A stretch of DNA of 64,000 bases from contig NW_024704743.1 of the NCBI RefSeq assembly GCF_018977255.1, forward strand, positions 100,130,001 through 100,194,000, given 5' to 3'. This DNA is from Callorhinchus milii. Taxonomy: Eukaryota. Both the position numbers and the translations under genes were made by a program. This document shows positions 7,075 to 64,000 of this stretch, in pieces; within the stretch, counting starts at the first letter, position 1; each line of letters starts with the position of its first letter. Below the pieces are notes generated by a model. That model saw only the letters and a list, made by a program, of their open reading frames with translations. It had not been told where the DNA came from and ran no database searches.

Positions 7075-7271
7075 CCTGTATGCCCGTTCACTTATGGCTT
7101 TGATGTGGCCTTCGTGCCACTTGCTACAGATGCCATCAATGACTTCACAGTAATCCACAAAGTAGCCAGTGATTTCAGAACCTCCATGGAATTTGGGTTC
7201 CTTCCATCCCAGGACCATAGAGTTACGGACACTTTCAAGAACTGTGATCCCATAAGGTGGGTCTGGAGAAA
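7075..7271 (-). CDS. MYOM1: MYOM1 exon (My7 Fn3)
   Basis: SPDPPYGITVLESVRNSMVLGWKEPKFHGGSEITGYFVDYCEVIDGICSKWHEGHIKAISERAYR; phase 1-0. Confidence 0.96.
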
Positions 7272-8750: not shown

Positions 8751-9775
8751 GCATTGTGTTCAGGAGATACTGGCCTAACTCAATCTGAATGGCAGTTTCA
8801 GTGCTTGCAAGCTGTAAAAGAGATTTTACTGCTATTTTCAAACCCAGTCAAACTGTGCAAATGCTGTAAAAGCCCAAAGAAACCGAGTTTCCATTCATCC
8901 CCTCTAAGTCACATGGACTTGCAAGACCTGAGCTCCAACCAAACAGCACCTCAAAGATGAAGTTGATGTGGCATAGAAATGTGGTAAGTATACAAATGTG
9001 CTCAGGGCCCTGAAAATTCTTAATCTGGCTCTGATAAAGGACTTCAGATGGTTACAGTATTCAAGCTCTCTTTCAAGCAATCCGGTGCGTCAAGTCAAAC
9101 ATGTCAACTTGTCAAAGTCATTGAAGATCCCTTAGATAAAATGCCAAATGAACTCAGTTGGAATAAAGAGAATGAAGTGGTGCAAGAAATTATAATTGAT
9201 CCCATTCAACATTAAGCACAAACCATTGAGAACAGTTAATGAGATCACCTCTCTTCCAAATAGCAAATGCTCTCAATGGTGGAACTGAGAGGAGAATAGA
9301 ATTCTGGTGACCCTTCTATGAAGAAGCATTTTGTTGGTTAAAACTGGCGAATTTTACATTGCAATTGAATGTTGATATGGCAAAACTCATTGCAAATGAA
9401 ATGGATCTTACCAGATGGGTGCCAGAATATTCTATACACCATCTCTTGCACATTATTTTATCTTTTTTATGGAACGCTGAAAGCAACATCCATAAAGAAC
9501 AAAGATATGGATTCCCCCAGTAATTAGTGCTGTTGTTGTGGGTATGTCAAAAAACAGTATCAAGCACAATAAATATAGATAAACTTTTCATCTTTGTTCT
9601 TGGTCCTCCTGATATTTTCTCAATGGATGGGACTGAGTGTGCTATCAGATATTGCACAAGACCTAATCTCATCATAGAATTGAGCAATGGCAACTGTAAT
9701 GTTTCCCTGATTTCTCACCTAAATCGTTCTCCTTGTGCATATCTTCTACCTTTGGACTTCTGAAGGTAGACTTAC

Positions 9776-10150
9776 GTGCCATTTCTGCATTTACCTTCTC
9801 TGGTGTATCTGGTACTGTGCAAGGTAAATTATCACGGCTAGTGGGCACCGAGCGTCTGTTAGGCACAACATCACAACTTAGTACAGTGTCGTGTGCGAGC
9901 TGAGATGTCTCATGCTTGTCATCCCAGCGTACACTGCTTTCTATTAATTCATCCGTGTGTATTCGACTTTCTATTAATACATCCACTTGTGCACTGCTTT
10001 CTGTTAGGCCATCCAAGTGCGCACTCTTTTCTGTTATTGCACCCCAAAGTGCACTTCTTTCTGTTATTCCATCCCAGTGTGCCCTCCTCTCTGTTAGTGC
10101 ATCAGTTTTACCACTTTGTTCAGGACACACACCATGAGGTACTCCTCTTC
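9776..10150 (-). CDS. MYOM1: MYOM1 EH-segment-like alternative exon (375 nt; a second in-frame donor at 9719 gives 432 nt)
   Basis: Lies between My6 and My7. Starts GRGVPHGVCPEQSGKTDALT (human EH starts GGGVSPDVCPALSDEPGGLT). tag|GA acceptor; donors C|gtaagt (9776) and G|gtgaga (9719), both phase 1. Confidence 0.82.
9924..10103 (-). repeat. Coding 30-bp minisatellite (6 units plus 1 degenerate) inside the EH exon
   Basis: DALTERRAHW/DGITERSALW/GAITEKSAHL/DGLTESSAQV/DVLIESRIHT/DELIESSVRW. Confidence 0.9.
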
Positions 10151-11533
10151 CTAGAGTTAAATAAAGTAATTCATCAGGGCACACGTTCACGTAACACATA
10201 ACAAGAAATACTTCATTTTTTCTCAAGAATGAAGAAAATGAAGACAACCAGTGATGCCAACACAGAACAAGAAAAGGGATGCAAGAAAATATATCTTACT
10301 GAGATTTAACACCATTGACAGGCAAGGCTCCAGACAAGGAACAGAACACACAGTTTCTATAATAGACAAGCACTTTGCTCCAGACTTTGTCGTTTGGCAA
10401 ACAACTCATTTTAGTTTTTNCTGTGTATCACTTGTCCAGAAAATAAAATAACATTGCTTGATGTAAGCAATTTCCCTCTTCACATGCATTAGGAAGACAA
10501 TTGCTTACTAATATGACTACAAGGATATTTCCAAATTTATTTCAGAATTTGAAAAATGCCTTCAATGATCATTTTGACCAGTAAATTCATTGCATGACAC
10601 ACATTATAACATATTTGATCAAATAAGGAAGGAAACAAAATTGCTTTAGTAAATTACTTCAGTTTATTCAATAACTATGACTGATTCCACTAATGAAATA
10701 TAATCTGATCACAAGTATTCTGTTGTGTTCAATGCAGAATTGCAACTTATTTAAAACTGTCTTGGGGCGCTTTAAATAAATTCTTTGTTAAGTCTATTTC
10801 ATTGGCATTCATTATCACTTCAATTAAATTCTTTGAAGTTTGCATGAAATTGCTACGATAATGAATGAGAGATGCTTTTGATATTTTTTGATGATTCCTG
10901 TGTGTTTGGTGCGTCATACAATGAGTTTTGGTTTGCTTATATAAGATGAGAGAATTTTTAACACATTCATCCACAAAATACAGTCAACTACTTTACAGTA
11001 TATCCTGTGAAGTACTTATCATAATGACATGATAAGGTGCTATATTAAATGCAAGGATTATTTAATATATTTATTAGCATTCACAGGAATAATAAGGGTT
11101 AGATGCACTCTTACATTTTTAAGACAAGCAGCTAGCCACAAAATGTTAGCAAATGCAGGTCAGCAAAGGAGTTAAATTACGTGTGTATGGACAGGATATG
11201 CACAGGGTGGTGTTGTAAGGGATACATTACGTTATGCTGAAGGAAAGCTGGTAGTCCATTGCTCGAGTACACTTTGAAGCATATGACTGTGAAGGAGTCT
11301 CATGTGAGATTTCATACAGTGGCTAATGGATAGGATGAGTGGTAAACAATAAACTTTCCATGTGATACAGGTACAATGGGGTGCAATACAGGTACAATAC
11401 AGTGAAGAACCACAACAACATGATGGCGCTGTGAAAACAGTTTGTCATTATTTGAAAAGTAAAATCAATGATAAACATCTTTACTATCAAAAATCTGAGC
11501 TCAGATAATATCAGCTTATTGTTCTGTACTTAC

Positions 11534-11655
11534 CTAGAGCTGCCTTGACCTCCAATGGTTCAGAATCCTGCGAGAAGTCACTGAGTCCAGCTGCATTAAC
11601 AGCCCTGACTTTGAATACATATACCTGACCAGTTTGCAGCCCATGACAAATAAAC
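11534..11655 (-). CDS. MYOM1: MYOM1 exon (My6 Fn3)
   Basis: FICHGLQTGQVYVFKVRAVNAAGLSDFSQDSEPLEVKAAL; phase 2-1. Confidence 0.97.
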
Positions 11656-34087: not shown

Positions 34088-35108
34088 TGGGATTGAAATT
34101 GTTTTATTCACTACCTGGTTTCACTAGTAGTGTCTTCTGCTGGTAAATGAAACATGATCATATCAAGCCTCAGGAACTCTCTCCCACATAATCATTTTCT
34201 GGACTGGAGTTTCTACAGGTCTGGGGATTCATGTCTGGTTATCGTCAAAAGTTGCGAGTTGGGATTTGGAATCACTGCTAGTGGTCAGCACCATCAGTGG
34301 GGTCCAATCCTATCTCATAACTGATCACCTTACGCACAAAATTTCTCTCAGCCTTAGCTTGAAAACCATGTCAGGTAGCGCTATCACTTTAGATCGTCAT
34401 CATGAGATGTTGAGAATGGATGTGCCTGTAAAACAGTTCAATGTTTCCAAATTGCAATGTCTGCATTCTAAATCTAAATAGAGAGACTGTATCCCTGGTT
34501 TAAAATAGAAGTGATAGAGATAGACTATCTTTAACATTCTGTTCAGAAGCAACCTTTTCTCATCTCAGGGCAAGACATGCCACATTGATGTTTTGCTGCT
34601 AGCCACTTTCAGAAATCCTGCATTCAGTGCCCCCCTCCCGACAGCAGGTCAGTCACTATGTCCCTCTGTGTGTACTGAGACTTAATGACAAAGCAAGTCC
34701 AGTGTTCTGACCTCAATCTTGGCTGTTAGCTGATCTGAGTCAGGGCATCAACTGGAGTACAATATTTGATTTAGTGGCTTTCAGATTGGGAGAATGTCAC
34801 AAAGTGCCTCTTAGGATTTACTGTAAAGTGTAGTGAACGTACATGTTTCTAGGCAAATCCAGCTGCAATATCTCACAAACCTTGACTTCTGTGGCCTTGG
34901 GTTGGGAAGGAGGAAAATTAACCAGAATTAGCTTTTGATCCCTAAACTACAGGTGAAGAAGGAAGAAACAAAACAAGAGAAAATTAACAGGAAAAAAAAA
35001 TCCGTCATCAATTTCAGTCGCTGAACGCAGCCTGATTCTTTGCGAAACCTAACTTTGATGCTGTATCTCTCTCGCGCTCTCTATGGCAATATCACTCTTT
35101 ATATTCAC

Positions 35109-35325: not shown

Positions 35326-37609
35326 CTAAAGGAAGAGTCAACAAGGGCAAAACTCGAATCTTTCTTCTTTTTCACAAAGAACATTTTTTTAATAAACATA
35401 AAACTGTCCCAACTTGTATTTTTACCTTGCTTCCCTATTCCATTGAAACTACTTAGCACAGTTAAGCCTCTTCTGTTAACACAGTTTTTTTTAGCTACTG
35501 AGATCAAGCCTTGTTATAACAAACTGTCCCCCTGATCTATAGAGTCCCTGATAAAGTCGATAAAACTGTACTTCTCAATAAAACAATTTGTATTTTCCCA
35601 TTCAGTCATTGGAATTGTTTTTGGGGGTGGTTTAATGATCAGTTCTATGGATTAATTACATGGTGTGATGGGTCCATTGTGAGATACACTGAGACACAAT
35701 CCAGAGGTTACACTGCTAGATAGCAGAATTGAAAGAGTTACAGCGCTGAGAGAAGGACGAGTTTACCCTGAGCTCAAGGAAAGGAATATGGAATTTATTG
35801 AACTTAGGAATCCTCATACATCACCTCCCAGGCCCCAGGCTCTTATTACAAGATCACAAGACTGGCCTGGATGAAGCTGGTCCATCTGATTTCATCCTTC
35901 CAGAACACTTATCCTATCATCCCTCAACACTGGATCAAGCTGCTTTTTAAATGAGTCTTCTGCCACCTTTATTGTTCCAGTCGATGATTATCCTCTGCGT
36001 TAAACAAAAAGCTTCCTGGTGTCTGTCCTGAACTCTAAACCTATGTCCTCTTGTTCTACTGTTTTGCTCATCTGATTATTCACCATTCCACTCAGTGTTC
36101 AGGGGACACAGATTGGAATGAAGAAATTAGAATTAAGAAGTCATTCTCAATAGACTTTCTGTATAAATTGTCAGGGAAATCCATTAAAATTGCTGCTTTA
36201 AATGAGTTGAAGAAGCAGAAGGACATATTACTGGGAAGAAGGTGAGAAGGTGGGTAAATAGGGCTGAGAATCAAAAAGCCCTTTATCTCCCTAATGATTG
36301 CTATATTCCGAGTAGGCCAGTTCTCATCAGAATAAGGTGACAATGATTTTGCTAATAAACACACATTTAATGCAAAGCTCTTACAAAGACACTATTTTTA
36401 ATGCATTTTAGTGTGCAACCAAAAAGCTTCTGTTTTAGCTCTCACAGTAATGCTATTAGATTTTACTAAATGTAGGGTAAATACACAAGATTGATGTGGT
36501 AATTATTAATAATAATAATTCTTACATCTGATTTGCAACCTTTCACATCAGGAGGTCATCCCAAAGTGCTTCACAAGATATACAGTGAAGGGTATTGACT
36601 GCCTATAAAAATCAAATAACTTCATATACCGCCCCACCGTCCCCACCCACAGACACACACATTGAACCATCAAGAAATGGGTGAGATGATTACAAATAGT
36701 CAGTGGCCTGTTATTGAAGGACTTATTTGATGAATTATTAATGAGAATAACTATGTCATTCTTAATGAGTTTATAACAGCGAAAGTTTACTTAAGCTGTC
36801 AATACCACCCTGTACCTCAGTGCTTTATCCTCTTGCGGGGGGGGTGGGGGGGTAGATGAGCAGGGTTTCTAAATTGACATGTTTAGCAATGGAATGTCAG
36901 AATCGAGCCAACCCTCTGTAGTGGTCTCAGTAGTCCAGTTCCTGAGCCAGGCGGGTCTGTAGTATTCCAGGATACTGCTGCTGACAGCACAGCCTGTCTG
37001 GCTCATCAACAGGACTTGGAGGGACAGATCAGCCACTGAGGAAAGGGACACTTCCCGCTCAGCTCCTGTTAACCCTGCAAGCCAAAGCCCTAATAGGCAG
37101 GGTGGTCCGAGCTAGACCAGGAGTGAGACAGCTTGCTTTCTATGCAGTTTTAGCTGGTTAAACTCCAGCAGTACCCCAACAGACTCTGGGGTTCCCCCAA
37201 GCCTTAGCTTTTGCCATCCTGCACCTAATATTGTCCAGTATTAGGAAAGCAGGATGCGTTCCTCCAGGGAGAGAGTGTGCATTCCATTCCAATAAATATC
37301 TCTGGAATTTCTATGCATAGGGAGGAAGCATGGAACTCTTAGTTTGGTTTGGATACTCTTTAGTATAGTGATAAGTTCCCGTATGTGGCAGACACCCGGC
37401 TAACCAAAACAAAATAGCTCAGTGCATGGAAGATGCACTTACATGGTAGGAAAAACTGATGAATGCTGCTGTTACCTCTCACATTATCCATCACCTTGAC
37501 AATTCTGGCCTGATCCATGTTTGCATATAGGGTTTTCAGTATGACTGCTGCATTGGTGATCTTCCTATCTATGTTACATATCTCTTGACTGCTACTCTTG
37601 AACACTGGT

Positions 37610-55367: not shown

Positions 55368-55602
55368 TAACATGCAAGAGCATTTGGATAGTGCCTATCA
55401 CACAAGGCATCTCAAAGCCCTGTACAGTGGTAGGGTTGGATGCCGAGCAAGAGAAAGGGTGACACGACCATGGGCAAGGTCAAAGAGGTAGGTCTTAAAT
55501 TCCAGAGATTAGAGACGTGGTGGCTGTAGTCACTAAATTCCAGCCAGCTTTACGTATGAGATGATTTTGCCTTAGTGCTTTGGGTCCATTTTAAATTCAT
55601 TC

Positions 55603-57230
55603 AACAATAACAACAACTTGGATTTATATAGTGCCCTCCACGCCGGACGCATCTCAGAGCGCTTCACAGTGACGGATCCCGGGACCGAGCCAGGGGGAGG
55701 GGGAGGAAGGTGACCAAAGGCGCAGTCGAAAAGAAAGGTCTTCAGCAGAGACCTAAAAATAGGAAGGGAGGTAGCGAGGCGAAGGGAGTGATGAAGGCAG
55801 TTCCAGAGCCTCGGAGAATAGTGACTGAAGGCATGGCTGCTGAGGGTGGAGCGGAGGACACGGGAGAAGCTGTTTGTGCAGATGTACTGCTGGTGGTTTG
55901 TGAGGTAGGACTCGAACCAGGCGAGTGCGGTCCCACTGAGGTGGATGACGGAGGAAAGGCGGTGGAGGAGGATGGAGCGATCGACTGTGTCGAACACAGC
56001 GGAGAGGTCGAGTAGGACAAGGAGGCAGAGAGAGCCCTGGTCACAGATAGAGAGGATGTCGTTTGTGACTTTCACAAGTGCAGTCTCTGTATTGTGGGCA
56101 GGGCGGAAACCGGACTGGAGGGGTTCGAAGAGGGAGTGGGAGGAGAGGTTTGCGCGGAGTTGATTGGCAACAACACGTTCTAGAACTTTTGCGAGGAAGG
56201 GCAGGTTAGAAATAGGACACTTATGCCTGGGGTTTGAGAGATCTAGGGACAGTTTTTTCAGGAGAGGGATGATGACAGCAGTTTTGAGGGAGGCAGGGAC
56301 TGATCCAGAGGAGAGGGACTGGTTGAAAATGTTAGCTAGTAGTGGGCAGAGGAGGGGGAGCTGGGTGACCAATAAGTTGATGGGGAGGGTGTTGAGGCAG
56401 CAGGTGGTGGGTTTCATGGAGGTGATGGTGGGTGAGAGGGAGGAGGGAGAGATGGGGAGGAAGGAATGTAGAATGGGGTTGGTGGTAGGAGCAGATGATG
56501 GGGAGGGTGAACGGGACAGAGAGGGTGTGGTGGTGGGTGACAAGAGACAGGTGATGAGGTTGCTGGTGGATGTTAAGTATTTTAGATGAAAAGAAGTCCA
56601 TGAACTCCTCGCACTTGGCGTTTGATACGAAGATTGAGGAGGCCTGAGGGAGACACGGAGGAGGTAGTGGGTGGTGGAAAAAAGGATTTTAGGGTTGTGT
56701 TTAGCCTCCAAGATGATGTTGGATGATGTTCCGTGTGTCAAAGAACGGCGGTAGCTGTGGAGATGCTCGAGCCACAGTTGGCGGTGAACTGTCAGGCCAG
56801 TTTTCCGCCATTTGCGCACAAGCAGCCGGGTTTGGGTTTTTTGGCGATGAAGATGGTTGTTGTACCAGGGAGTTTGGGTGGGTTTGGAGATGGTCCTGGA
56901 TTTCAGGGGGACGAGGGAGTTGAAGGTGGAGGAGAGGTGATCATGGAGCAGCTGGACGGCTGCTTCAGGATCTCCGCGGGTGGAAGGCCAGAGGGATAGG
57001 ATGTTTGATGATGAGAGGGCCTTCGTGAGGTCTCAGGGGGTAGCCTTTTCCAAGGGCGGTAGAGGATGGTTGAGGGCTTGGTGGAGGAGAGAAGGATGTG
57101 AGAGGAGAAGGAGATGAAAAAGTGCTCCGAGATGGCCTTGTCCACTATGCTGAGATCGGAAATGTCAAGGCCGTGGGTGATAACAAGATCAAGGGCATGG
57201 CCACGGTTGTGGGTGGGTGAGTTTATATGA
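55603..57230 (-). mobile_element. L2-clade LINE fragment (ORF2 endonuclease end, RT, 3' end; internally deleted)
   Basis: PTHNRGHALDLV; PISNLPFLAKVLERVV; QSGFRPAHNTETAL; LLDLSAVFDTVD; (TTG)n tail. Confidence 0.93.
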
Positions 57231-60506: not shown

Positions 60507-61810
60507 TCAACAACAACAAAATGACATTTGTATAGCACTTTTCACATCGGGAGGACGTCCCAAGGGGCTGGACAGACAGAGTTTGGGACCCGAGCTGGGG
60601 TCTTGAGACCATCCTAGTCAATCCATAGTCATAGTCATAGTCATAGTCAAGCCTCGATGTAATGTATAAGGGTTTCGACGGCCTGTGGTGTGAGACAGTG
60701 GTGGAGCCGGGCGATGTTGCGGAGGTGGGGGAAGACATGGTGATGATGTTGGGTAGAAAGGACAGTTGAAGGTCAAACAAGACCTCAACGTTCCGGACTG
60801 GCTTAGCAAGGTAGAGTGTGCAACCACGGATGGTGGTGCTGTCAGCACCTGAGGTGAGGAGGCGCTGATGGGAGCCAATCAGGAGAGCCTCGGTCTTGTT
60901 GATGTTCAACTGAAGAAAATTAGCTCTCATCCAGGACTTGATGTCTGACAGACATTTTGTCAGGACAGCAGTGGTCCTGGAGACAAGGGTGAGGCAGAGA
61001 GGTACAGGTGGGTGTCATCTGCATACACGTGGCAGTTGATCCCATATCTGCGGATGATGTCACCAAGAGGGAGCATATAGATATTGAAGAGGAGGGAACC
61101 AAGGACAGAGCCCCAAGGAACGCTGCACAAGACGGTGCGGGGGNCTAGAGGAGAAGCTGTTCATGGAGATGAAGTGGAGGCGGTGTGAGAGGTACAATCT
61201 GAACCAGTCAAGGACAGAGCCGTGAAGGTTGAGATGAGAGGAGAGGCGGTGGATGAGGATAGAGTGGTCGACGGTGTTGAAGGCAGCAGAGAGGTCAAGG
61301 AGGACGGGGAGGCAGAGGGAGCCCTGGTCGCAGATGGACAGAATGTCATTTGTCATTTTGACCAGGGCTGTTTCTGTGCTGTGGACGGCACAGAAACCCG
61401 ATTGGAGGGGTTCGAGAAGGGAGTGGCGGGAGAGGAAGGACCGAAGCTGAGAAGCAACAACTCATTCCAGGACAAGGAGAGGAAAGGGAGGTTGGAGATG
61501 GGGCAGTAGTTTTGGAGTAGAGAAGGGTCTAGGGAGGATTTTTTAAGGATAAGAATGATGACAGTGGTTTTTAATGGGGTGGGAACAGTACCAGAGGACA
61601 GGGAGATGTTTAGTTTAGTCAGTTTCACCTGCGTTATGGTGGAGATGAGAGAGGAGGGGGAGACAGTTTCGAAAGTGTGGAGGGAGGGATGGGTAGGGGC
61701 CAGGGTGGGAGGGGGAGATGGGGAGGGGGTGGCAGATGGAAGGGGAGAGGCAGCTGATTCCCTTGATTTTGGATTCGAGGAAATCCAGCATCGCCTCGTA
61801 GTTGGCATTT
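60507..61810 (-). mobile_element. L2-clade LINE fragment (RT, degenerate)
   Basis: PISNLPFL, LLDLSAAFNTVDH, YADD-type motif, NFLQLNINKTE; L2 tail. Confidence 0.92.
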
Positions 61811-64000
61811 GAGGTGAGGATGAACGAGGCGTGATCAACATTTTAAAAACCATTTTTGTTTTGATTTATGGAAAGAAGTGCTAAATAAAGGACAATGTGA
61901 GTGAAATTTACAATATTTTATAAAAGATTTGATGTGATAATTTTCCCAACTGTATAAATGTATATAAAACATAAAAATTTAAAAATGGAAACCTTTTGAG
62001 GTAAATGATGGTAAGCCATGCAAAAATCGAATATCTCTAAAATCAAATTAATCTACAGACTTAACCCACTGTGGACGGACTGTTGGGAGAGTTCTCATTG
62101 GTGTGATTTTCCATAGGCCACAGTGTGAGGATGCTAATAATGATAATAATAATAATAATGCGTGCATTTGACATAGTGCCTTATCACGTCTTCAAGACGT
62201 CTCTGTGACATCCTCCTCAACATGGTCTGTAAGTGACTCTGCGGTGGTCTAGGTTGTATTTATAGTCTGTGCATCGGTGCTAGCAGTCATTTGCCTCAAA
62301 AGGTTTCCATTTCTATACTTGTATTGATATATTTTTTTCACCAGCTCCTGTAACAAAGCTCGGGCATATTCAGAAACCGATGAAAGCCACTAACTGCACC
62401 AGCAACAGACATTTAAAGATACAACGACACAACAGATTTCAACTACTAATTTACTTGGGAGTTTTAGATCTCCGGAAAGACAGCAGAAGACAAAAGAAAA
62501 GGAATGTTGACTTTAGCCTCTGATAGTCTTACACAGAAGAATTGACCTTTGACATTCTCCTGTCAGAATGCTGTTCTTTGGATGAAAGGTCCTTATCAAA
62601 GGCAAGAATTTTTATTGTATTAAACCTAAATTCAGAAATGAGTAGAGCTGACTGCTAAACACAGAAGTGAAGGAGTTGGGCAAGTTTTACATTTAGTCAG
62701 GCTGACAAGGTTGTCAGCTTGGCTCAGCTTGTAGTACTCTGAGCTGAAAAGTTGTGTGTTTAAGGAACGCATATGGCCATTGCACTGTGTTGTAAGAGGT
62801 GAGCACCTTATTGTCAGAATGCTGTTCTTTATTATGAGAATTAAAAGCAAGGTCCCATCTTCAGTCAAGGAAGAAGAATAACAACAATTTGCATTTATAT
62901 TGCGAGACTCTCACGGAGTAGAGCCTCAGAGTGCTTAAAGAACATTCATCAAAAAGACAAGGGAGTTTCCCCCGCTGTCCCAGCCAACCATCTCCAGATT
63001 AATTAATCATTCACCTCATCGGACTTTGCTGGTTGCAAAATGACTGCCACATTACCCTATATAAAACCAATGACTAATATGTGATATTAATTACAATTAA
63101 GTGGTATGAGACTAAAGGTATTATAAAAACAAAAGTTAATTCACAAAGGCTGTACCTCAACTGGACCTATGTGTTCTTTTACTTATTATAATAGGTACTT
63201 AATGCTAAACCCTCAAATTTTAAAATTAAGTAAATAGTGGGCTTATCATTTATCACAGTGCAATGGCCATGGAAAGACACCATAGTTGTACACAACAGCA
63301 ACGACAATTGACAGTTCTGTAGTGCATTTTATGTCAGGAGGACATCTCAAAGCACCCAATTACAGTGGAATATGGAGGTCATGGGGGAAGATGACTGAGA
63401 GAGCAGTCAAAAAGATGGATCTTAAGATTGATAGATCTGACTCAGAGTACTACAAGCTTGACTAAAAAGATAGATCTACCACAGTCAGTAGACTAAGGAT
63501 TCAAATGCTATAGTTTTTTTAATTCTGAGGTATCTTTGCAAACCTTTTTCAGATGTTGAATTTAAGTATAATACGTCAGCAGATTTGGGAAAGGAGGGAA
63601 AACCACTGGGGTTGGCGGGGGGGGGGGGGAGGGGGGTGGAATAACACAACATAACAGGATGTAATAGTGGTCCAGTAAAATTAAAGAGAGAAAAAACAGC
63701 TAATGGTGACATTAACAAAGTGGAAGACCAGACTACAAACCAGAGGAAGGAACATCAATATCACGTAGGAGGAGACTTTCACTGCTCCTGTCACAACAAA
63801 ACAATTGGCCTAGAATTTAACTAGTGAAGTGATCGTGCGTGCAGCATATATATGTTGATGGATTAGGTGTGACGTGAACTATTTAACTCCGAATTTTATA
63901 GTTCATGTAAACAAATAAAACGGTGTTGGGAGAGGGAAGGTTATCAATATATGATGCCTTTTAATAATCCTTACATTTGAAATATCTCTTCTTAGAAATG

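Follow-up and report, generated by a model that had tools for sequence, protein, structure and literature searches.

The window, the whole stretch of 64,000 nucleotides of Callorhinchus milii DNA that was analysed, carries the myom1 gene on the minus strand, with a 100% match to RefSeq. The exons of RefSeq isoform X1 map in turn onto this strand from 45853 down past the low end of the window, and the isoform extends into the adjoining stretch. A cassette exon is found between the exons for the Fn3 domains My6 and My7. The features of this region are:

11534..11655, minus strand: constitutive exon closing Fn3 domain My6 (...EVKAAL), donor TAG/GTAAGT, phase 1
10181..10430, minus strand: flank in the upstream intron with six TCTT words, from a motif count
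9719..10150, minus strand: EH cassette exon, full form, 432 nt, 144 aa, distal donor TAG/GTGAGA at 9719; RefSeq X1-X3
10133..10150, minus strand: short form (stub) of the EH exon, 18 nt, GRGVPH, proximal donor ATG/GTGTGT; RefSeq X4, UniRef V9K7R8
9921..10100, minus strand: six tandem 30-nt units (10 aa each, ALTERRAHWD type) by sequence comparison, with one unit in the other aligned jawed vertebrates
9770..9778, minus strand: in-frame donor-like site CAC/GTAAGT, encoding R-K-S, that would give 125 aa; use not seen in four runs
7075..7271, minus strand: constitutive exon opening Fn3 domain My7 (SPDPPYG...), acceptor AAACAG/T, phase 1

The gene had been taken for a cartilaginous-fish myomesin-1 and this was borne out. 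Isoform X1 has the unique head, the Ig domains and the five Fn3 domains, with five fn3 and five passing I-set stretches in Pfam. The protein falls inside the MYOM1 clade with shark and ray proteins, away from MYOM2 and MYOM3 (SH-aLRT 99-100), in quick maximum-likelihood trees of 30 and of 14 rows hand-picked among the matches, and the cyclostome proteins are the sister of jawed-vertebrate MYOM1. Two further myomesin loci are present in the C. milii genome, on C3 and C10. No match to LPIN2 was found within 40 kb downstream. The 124-aa translation of a 375-nt version of the exon has a 100% match to one database protein, C. milii myomesin-1 isoform X2, and among 201 candidates this was the sole match; a flank-anchored search was therefore needed to reach other species.

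Some further variation was seen in the rest of the gene. RefSeq isoform X2 is without 45 head-domain residues (47-91, window about 35327-35460) that the other isoforms have, an extra splice choice in the myosin-binding head at the start of the exon ending near 35091. There are two C-terminal tails outside the window (G000:C2:100118768, the My13 exon, and 100103564-100101607), a short one made by donor read-through and a long one of 114 aa encoded by two downstream exons. The long tail resembles bird, turtle, gar, sturgeon, bichir and shark tails, with blastp E values between 1e-4 and 1e-34 in a small comparison set; its likeness to Xenopus and alligator tails was judged by eye. Long open frames on the minus strand at about 55575-57032 and 60600-61900 resemble fragments of a LINE (CR1/L2-type) ORF2. 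Short repeat-like pieces are spread over numerous introns; one example lies near 11030-11062, a place to which many unrelated contigs align.

The My6 exon ends with ...CTAG/GTAAGT at 11534 in phase 1. The cassette exon begins at 10150 with the acceptor TTAACTCTAG/G, its frame opens G-R-G-V-P-H-G-V-C-P and stays open as far as 9675, and all junctions are phase 1-1. Transcript evidence was taken from assembled contigs of 4 of 12 sequencing runs, which are RNA by the tool's guess and carry no tissue or stage labels; such contigs tell the presence of a form rather than its level or tissue. Introns are removed exactly at GT-AG sites, and the contigs are therefore spliced. The full form 10150-9719 was found in two of the four putative RNA runs: X2 and X4, which belong to two studies, both contain the joints 11534-10150 and 9719-7271. 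One contig of run X2, 3798 letters long, spans four exons and includes both joints. The joint 11534-7271, which skips the exon, was found in one of the four (run X3). The stub joint 10133-7271 was also found in one (run X5), where a 17-letter loose end ties the stub to the My6 exon; the stub is the main contig of that run, with a depth of 842. Contig differences inside the exon amount to four letters, three synonymous and one causing D>G, and the frame is intact in all.

With a single acceptor and two or more donors, the linker between My6 and My7 gains 144, 6 or 0 residues. The three forms are already present in the public annotation of RefSeq and UniProt, and a cluster of nine database records contains six with 144 residues, two with GRGVPH and one without insert. 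The original prediction of a skippable phase 1-1 cassette between My6 and My7 agrees with the skipping joint, and the junction 11534-10150 that it had named for checking is present in runs X2 and X4. Its 375-nt exon with canonical sites was right as to acceptor 10150, reading frame and a donor-like sequence at 9776 and wrong as to the end, since the observed full exon ends at 9719 (432 nt). The junction 9776-7271 was found in none of the four runs, and RefSeq X1-X3 carry 144 aa rather than 125; 9776 was rejected as the main exon end on these grounds. The third form, of six residues, had been overlooked, as had the six tandem 30-nt units at 10100-9921. The opening GRGVPHGVCP stands as predicted, and the GGGVSPDVCP start to which it had been likened as human was found in primate records, the human record itself being outside the comparison.

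The donor consensus recognised by U1 is CAG/GTAAGT. The open frame contains 17 in-frame GT sites, and site 9776, one of these at a distance of 375 nt from the acceptor, agrees with this consensus at 8 of 9 letters, followed by 9719 (6) and by 10133 and 10112 (5 each). The joint 9776-7271 is absent from the contigs of all four runs; contigs drop rare forms, so that this is not proof of absence. The R-K-S of the site stands 19 codons before the exon end, and in the alignment an [R/S/C]-K-[S/F] motif is found about 20 residues from the insert end in sturgeon, gar, bird, lizard, marsupial and teleost. Four bird, four teleost and two orangutan records stop just before the aligned motif (12 residues from the end in the orangutan), and most of them show the junction residue predicted by such a donor, from which 9776 is probably a real, conserved minor donor. 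Another in-frame site, GTG/GTAAAA at window position 10112, is found 39 nt into the exon and was not seen in the four runs. Forms of 13 residues that end at the place aligned to 10112 occur in Chiloscyllium plagiosum (three records) and Silurus (one).

The distribution of the forms was examined in 313 pattern-matched records, which are records rather than species, are mostly predicted models and come from match lists biased by score. The 291 non-mammalian records comprise 166 long, 76 skip, 45 six-residue and four thirteen-residue forms, and the 22 mammalian records 11 long, 11 skip and no six-residue forms. The six-residue count falls from 45 to 44 when the UniRef model P0018, with six read-through intron residues, is dropped; P0017 is likewise omitted. 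The 44 records in which the stub is annotated are from chimaera, sharks, a ray, teleosts, turtles, a monitor lizard and birds. Of the 162 non-mammalian long inserts compared at residue 7, 159 have Gly; the 11 mammalian ones all have D, A or V there. In C. milii, the sole species where the codon was seen, this Gly is encoded by GGT. For a phase-1 donor to follow the sixth residue, the next codon must have the form N-GT, and mammals can therefore not have the stub donor at that position.

For the comparison between species, My6-My7 linkers were cut from the matches that two flank-anchored searches gave and from the members of the clusters of those matches. Long inserts at this joint are found in sharks, rays, sturgeon, reedfish, gar, teleosts, coelacanth, turtles, squamates, birds and mammals, while the Xenopus, caecilian, lungfish and crocodilian records examined are skip forms only. 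The predicted jawed-vertebrate age of the EH insert is thus upheld by a homologous insert at the same joint in sharks through mammals, and a 2022 review states, in the passages used here, that EH is found in all species (PMC8900313). Local scores against the chimaera insert are 254 for catshark, 123 for sturgeon, 87 for gar, 78 for a teleost, 88 for coelacanth, 112 for hoatzin and 93 for a lizard, and each of these seven scores was reached by 0 of 2000 shuffles. Three mammalian inserts score weakly (44-51), with 25, 1 and 4 of 2000 shuffles reaching the score. Direct similarity to the mammalian EH is weak, and homology leans on position and on the intermediates.

No insert is present in the records that represent the Myxine cluster (1 of 2 members) and the Petromyzon cluster (1 of 11). 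These cyclostome models weakly suggest that the insert arose in jawed vertebrates, a cassette missing from a model not being the same as absence from a genome. The Eptatretus model was set aside as uninformative, being broken at My6/My7. A record labelled Lampetra planeri (P0243, CAM9107718.1) was rejected as a lamprey EH; it nests among percomorph teleosts with a support of 99-100 and is likely mislabelled or contaminated. Within C. milii, the myom2-like and myom3-like loci gave no tblastn match to EH, and no convincing cassette was found in their My6-My7 introns. A genome search with the exon gave the exon itself and one weak match, G000:C12:16212694-16212927, which has 35% identity over residues 12-91 (E 9e-4), matches the repeat part in a 263-aa open frame and is probably another 10-residue repeat.

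An N-terminal core of about 55 residues is common to chimaera and bird inserts in the alignment and the rear part is not conserved; L18, T19 and H79 are invariant across the 29 alignment rows. This pattern can also be read as a conserved binding or regulatory motif at the front of the insert, with six copies of L-T-x4-W multiplying a docking site and elasticity being secondary. The duplicated unit does belong to the conserved core. The mammals have, however, lost the Trp and three further residues of the unit, the Trp is kept in just three of the six chimaera units, and the passages of the cited literature name no partner. Conservation near the exon start may also reflect splice signals, as the proximal donor is located there. 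A docking function is accordingly considered improbable as the main role.

The 30-nt units of the chimaera exon are 57-80% alike. Identity at a lag of 30 is 0.71, compared with 0.29 in codon shuffles, and 0 of 10000 shuffles reach 0.71. Each of the other 23 aligned species has one copy, which indicates that five copies (50 aa) were gained in the chimaera line; without them the chimaera insert is 94 aa, near the 96 aa of mammals. The 11 aligned elasmobranch inserts, of 138-164 aa, are instead lengthened by a rear 10-residue repeat (KGPKVQDMHE type), of which the chimaera has one copy. From the alignment, chimaera and elasmobranchs appear to have come to similar insert lengths separately, by different repeats. 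The inserts of Hemiscyllium X1, Scyliorhinus X1, Rhincodon, Hemitrygon and Leucoraja are about 60% identical to that of the chimaera over the aligned exon and share with it the core, the approximate length and a 10-residue periodicity, and the stub is annotated in several of them; they differ in the repeat that is multiplied, the unit that is six-fold in the chimaera being single. The expectation of a longer insert was correct against the mammalian 96 aa; the figure of 125 aa was replaced by 144, and the extra length is a lineage-specific tandem duplication rather than ancestral. Many teleost inserts are about 135-160 aa, so the chimaera length is unexceptional. Internal duplications are also seen by alignment in the EH inserts of P0114 (Antechinus) and P0072 (Gymnothorax), which means that repeat growth in this exon happened more than twice.

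These length differences can be interpreted in two ways, both tentative. The exon may be functional and its details neutral, with repeats produced by slippage in a linker that tolerates varying length, and with the stub and 9776 as tolerated splicing noise. The range of insert length, 75 to 260 aa among 229 records, the drift of the repeats and the weak proximal donor (5 of 9 consensus letters) would fit this possible but doubtful reading. The prominence of the stub in run X5, its own UniRef entry, its recurrence across non-mammalian records and the retention there of the Gly that enables G/GT argue against it. Alternatively, and with similar hesitation, the exon could be ancestrally a multi-step dial rather than an on/off switch, in which a single acceptor combined with three donors (one at +18 nt, one some 20 codons short of the exon end and one at the end itself) yields 0, 6, about 125 or 144 residues. 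The +18 donor would then have been lost in mammals, and a 95-residue core would have grown by about 50 residues in chimaeras and, independently and by different 30-nt repeats, in elasmobranchs, under selection on the length of the M-band spring in the muscle of cartilaginous fish.

No Pfam family was matched in the insert. Disorder-promoting residues make up 67% of it (by the author's residue list) and Pro 6%. The chimaera insert is poorer in Pro and Ser than most bony-vertebrate inserts and richer in order-promoting residues, with a fraction of 0.26 compared with 0.14-0.26. AlphaFold2 gave no folded domain (mean pLDDT 54.6, pTM 0.28); residues 81-143 are coil with a block pLDDT of 40-52, and residues 26-46 and 52-80, the repeats, are low-confidence helices with a block pLDDT of 58-73. 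Given these modelled helices, the repeats may not be random coil. They could in principle adopt a helix of marginal stability which opens reversibly when loaded, as the helical linkers of My9-My13 do, and make the spring partly helical. The two helices lie exactly over the repeat block, 22 residues reach a pLDDT of 70-90 and the units are without proline. Low-confidence helices are, on the other hand, a common guess of AlphaFold, the overall confidence is low, the units contain Gly, Asp and Ser, and the repeat block has no alignment depth beyond one identical row. A helical spring is regarded as unlikely.

The preferred reading is that the exon is the elephant-shark counterpart of EH and that the long insert is an unfolded, stretchable linker that makes the M-band cross-links more compliant, and this is considered probable. 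The exon is a single frame-preserving one between My6 and My7, and inclusion and skipping both occur. A disordered chain has a contour length of about 0.36 nm per residue; the long form, as a mostly disordered entropic spring, would then measure about 52 nm per chain, the 96-aa mammalian insert about 35 nm and the stub about 2 nm. The stub is predicted to be mechanically near skipping, and the proximal donor would therefore be a second way of switching the spring off. Muscle types would pick forms by donor competition and skipping, with the long form probably in heart or slow muscle. The passages of PMC8900313 used here describe an EH of 96 aa that separates My6 from My7, is predicted to be disordered, lends elasticity as titin PEVK does, and is found mainly in embryonic heart and slow fibres; those of PMC7023976 also give EH an elastic role. 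EH-myomesin of mammals and birds (MYOM1 exon 17a, mouse exon 18) has in common with the chimaera form the gene, the My6/My7 position, the frame-preserving cassette, the homologous N-terminal core, the lack of a predicted folded domain and the choice of inclusion or skipping. It is 96-110 aa long compared with 144, and the chimaera adds five 10-aa units and the six-residue stub. In titin PEVK a disordered length set by splicing determines compliance, as in the account of EH in the same part of PMC8900313. No sequence relation to PEVK is claimed; PEVK is in the I-band and the insert in the M-band, and the Pro content of the chimaera insert is only 6%.

Six TCTT words upstream of the exon is the highest number among 21 exon upstream flanks (0-4 in the others), and there are three downstream. 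TCTT was taken to be an RBM20-type site. No enrichment of YGCY or TGCATG was found in the 250-nt flanks. From the motif count, the TCTT words are possible, weak candidates for RBM20-type sites upstream of the EH exon. Control of EH by RBM20, MBNL and SRSF5 and its re-expression in dilated cardiomyopathy are described in the parts consulted of PMC7023976, PMC3032906, PMC8482499 and PMC4413555. In fish, the portion of bioRxiv 429704 available lists myom1b among the genes respliced on cold acclimation in three species, the exon being unnamed there, and that of PMC4280514 reports fibre-type lattice differences in shark with speculation on myomesin isoforms. The passages of PMC6808450 consulted do not treat fish EH splicing.

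No published account of EH in cartilaginous fish, of the six-residue stub or of the 30-nt repeats was found in the literature searched, subscription papers being outside reach. The derived repeat length, the non-mammalian stub and the alignment of 9776 with a donor of bird, teleost and orangutan records are thus apparently unpublished details. The EH exon itself is ordinary in kind and well supported, with its boundary corrected.

The evidence, which includes transcripts from the deepest branch, places the splice-set M-band spring in the last common ancestor of the jawed vertebrates now living, or earlier. This dating was expected and is not surprising, and the details are more useful, among them a conserved six-residue form missing in mammals and an internal donor, likewise conserved, used by an orangutan model. 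Re-expression of EH marks dilated cardiomyopathy (PMC3032906 and PMC7023976, in part), and forms of intermediate length could therefore matter for measuring EH splicing. The two independent repeat expansions are a natural series for testing insert length against M-band compliance.
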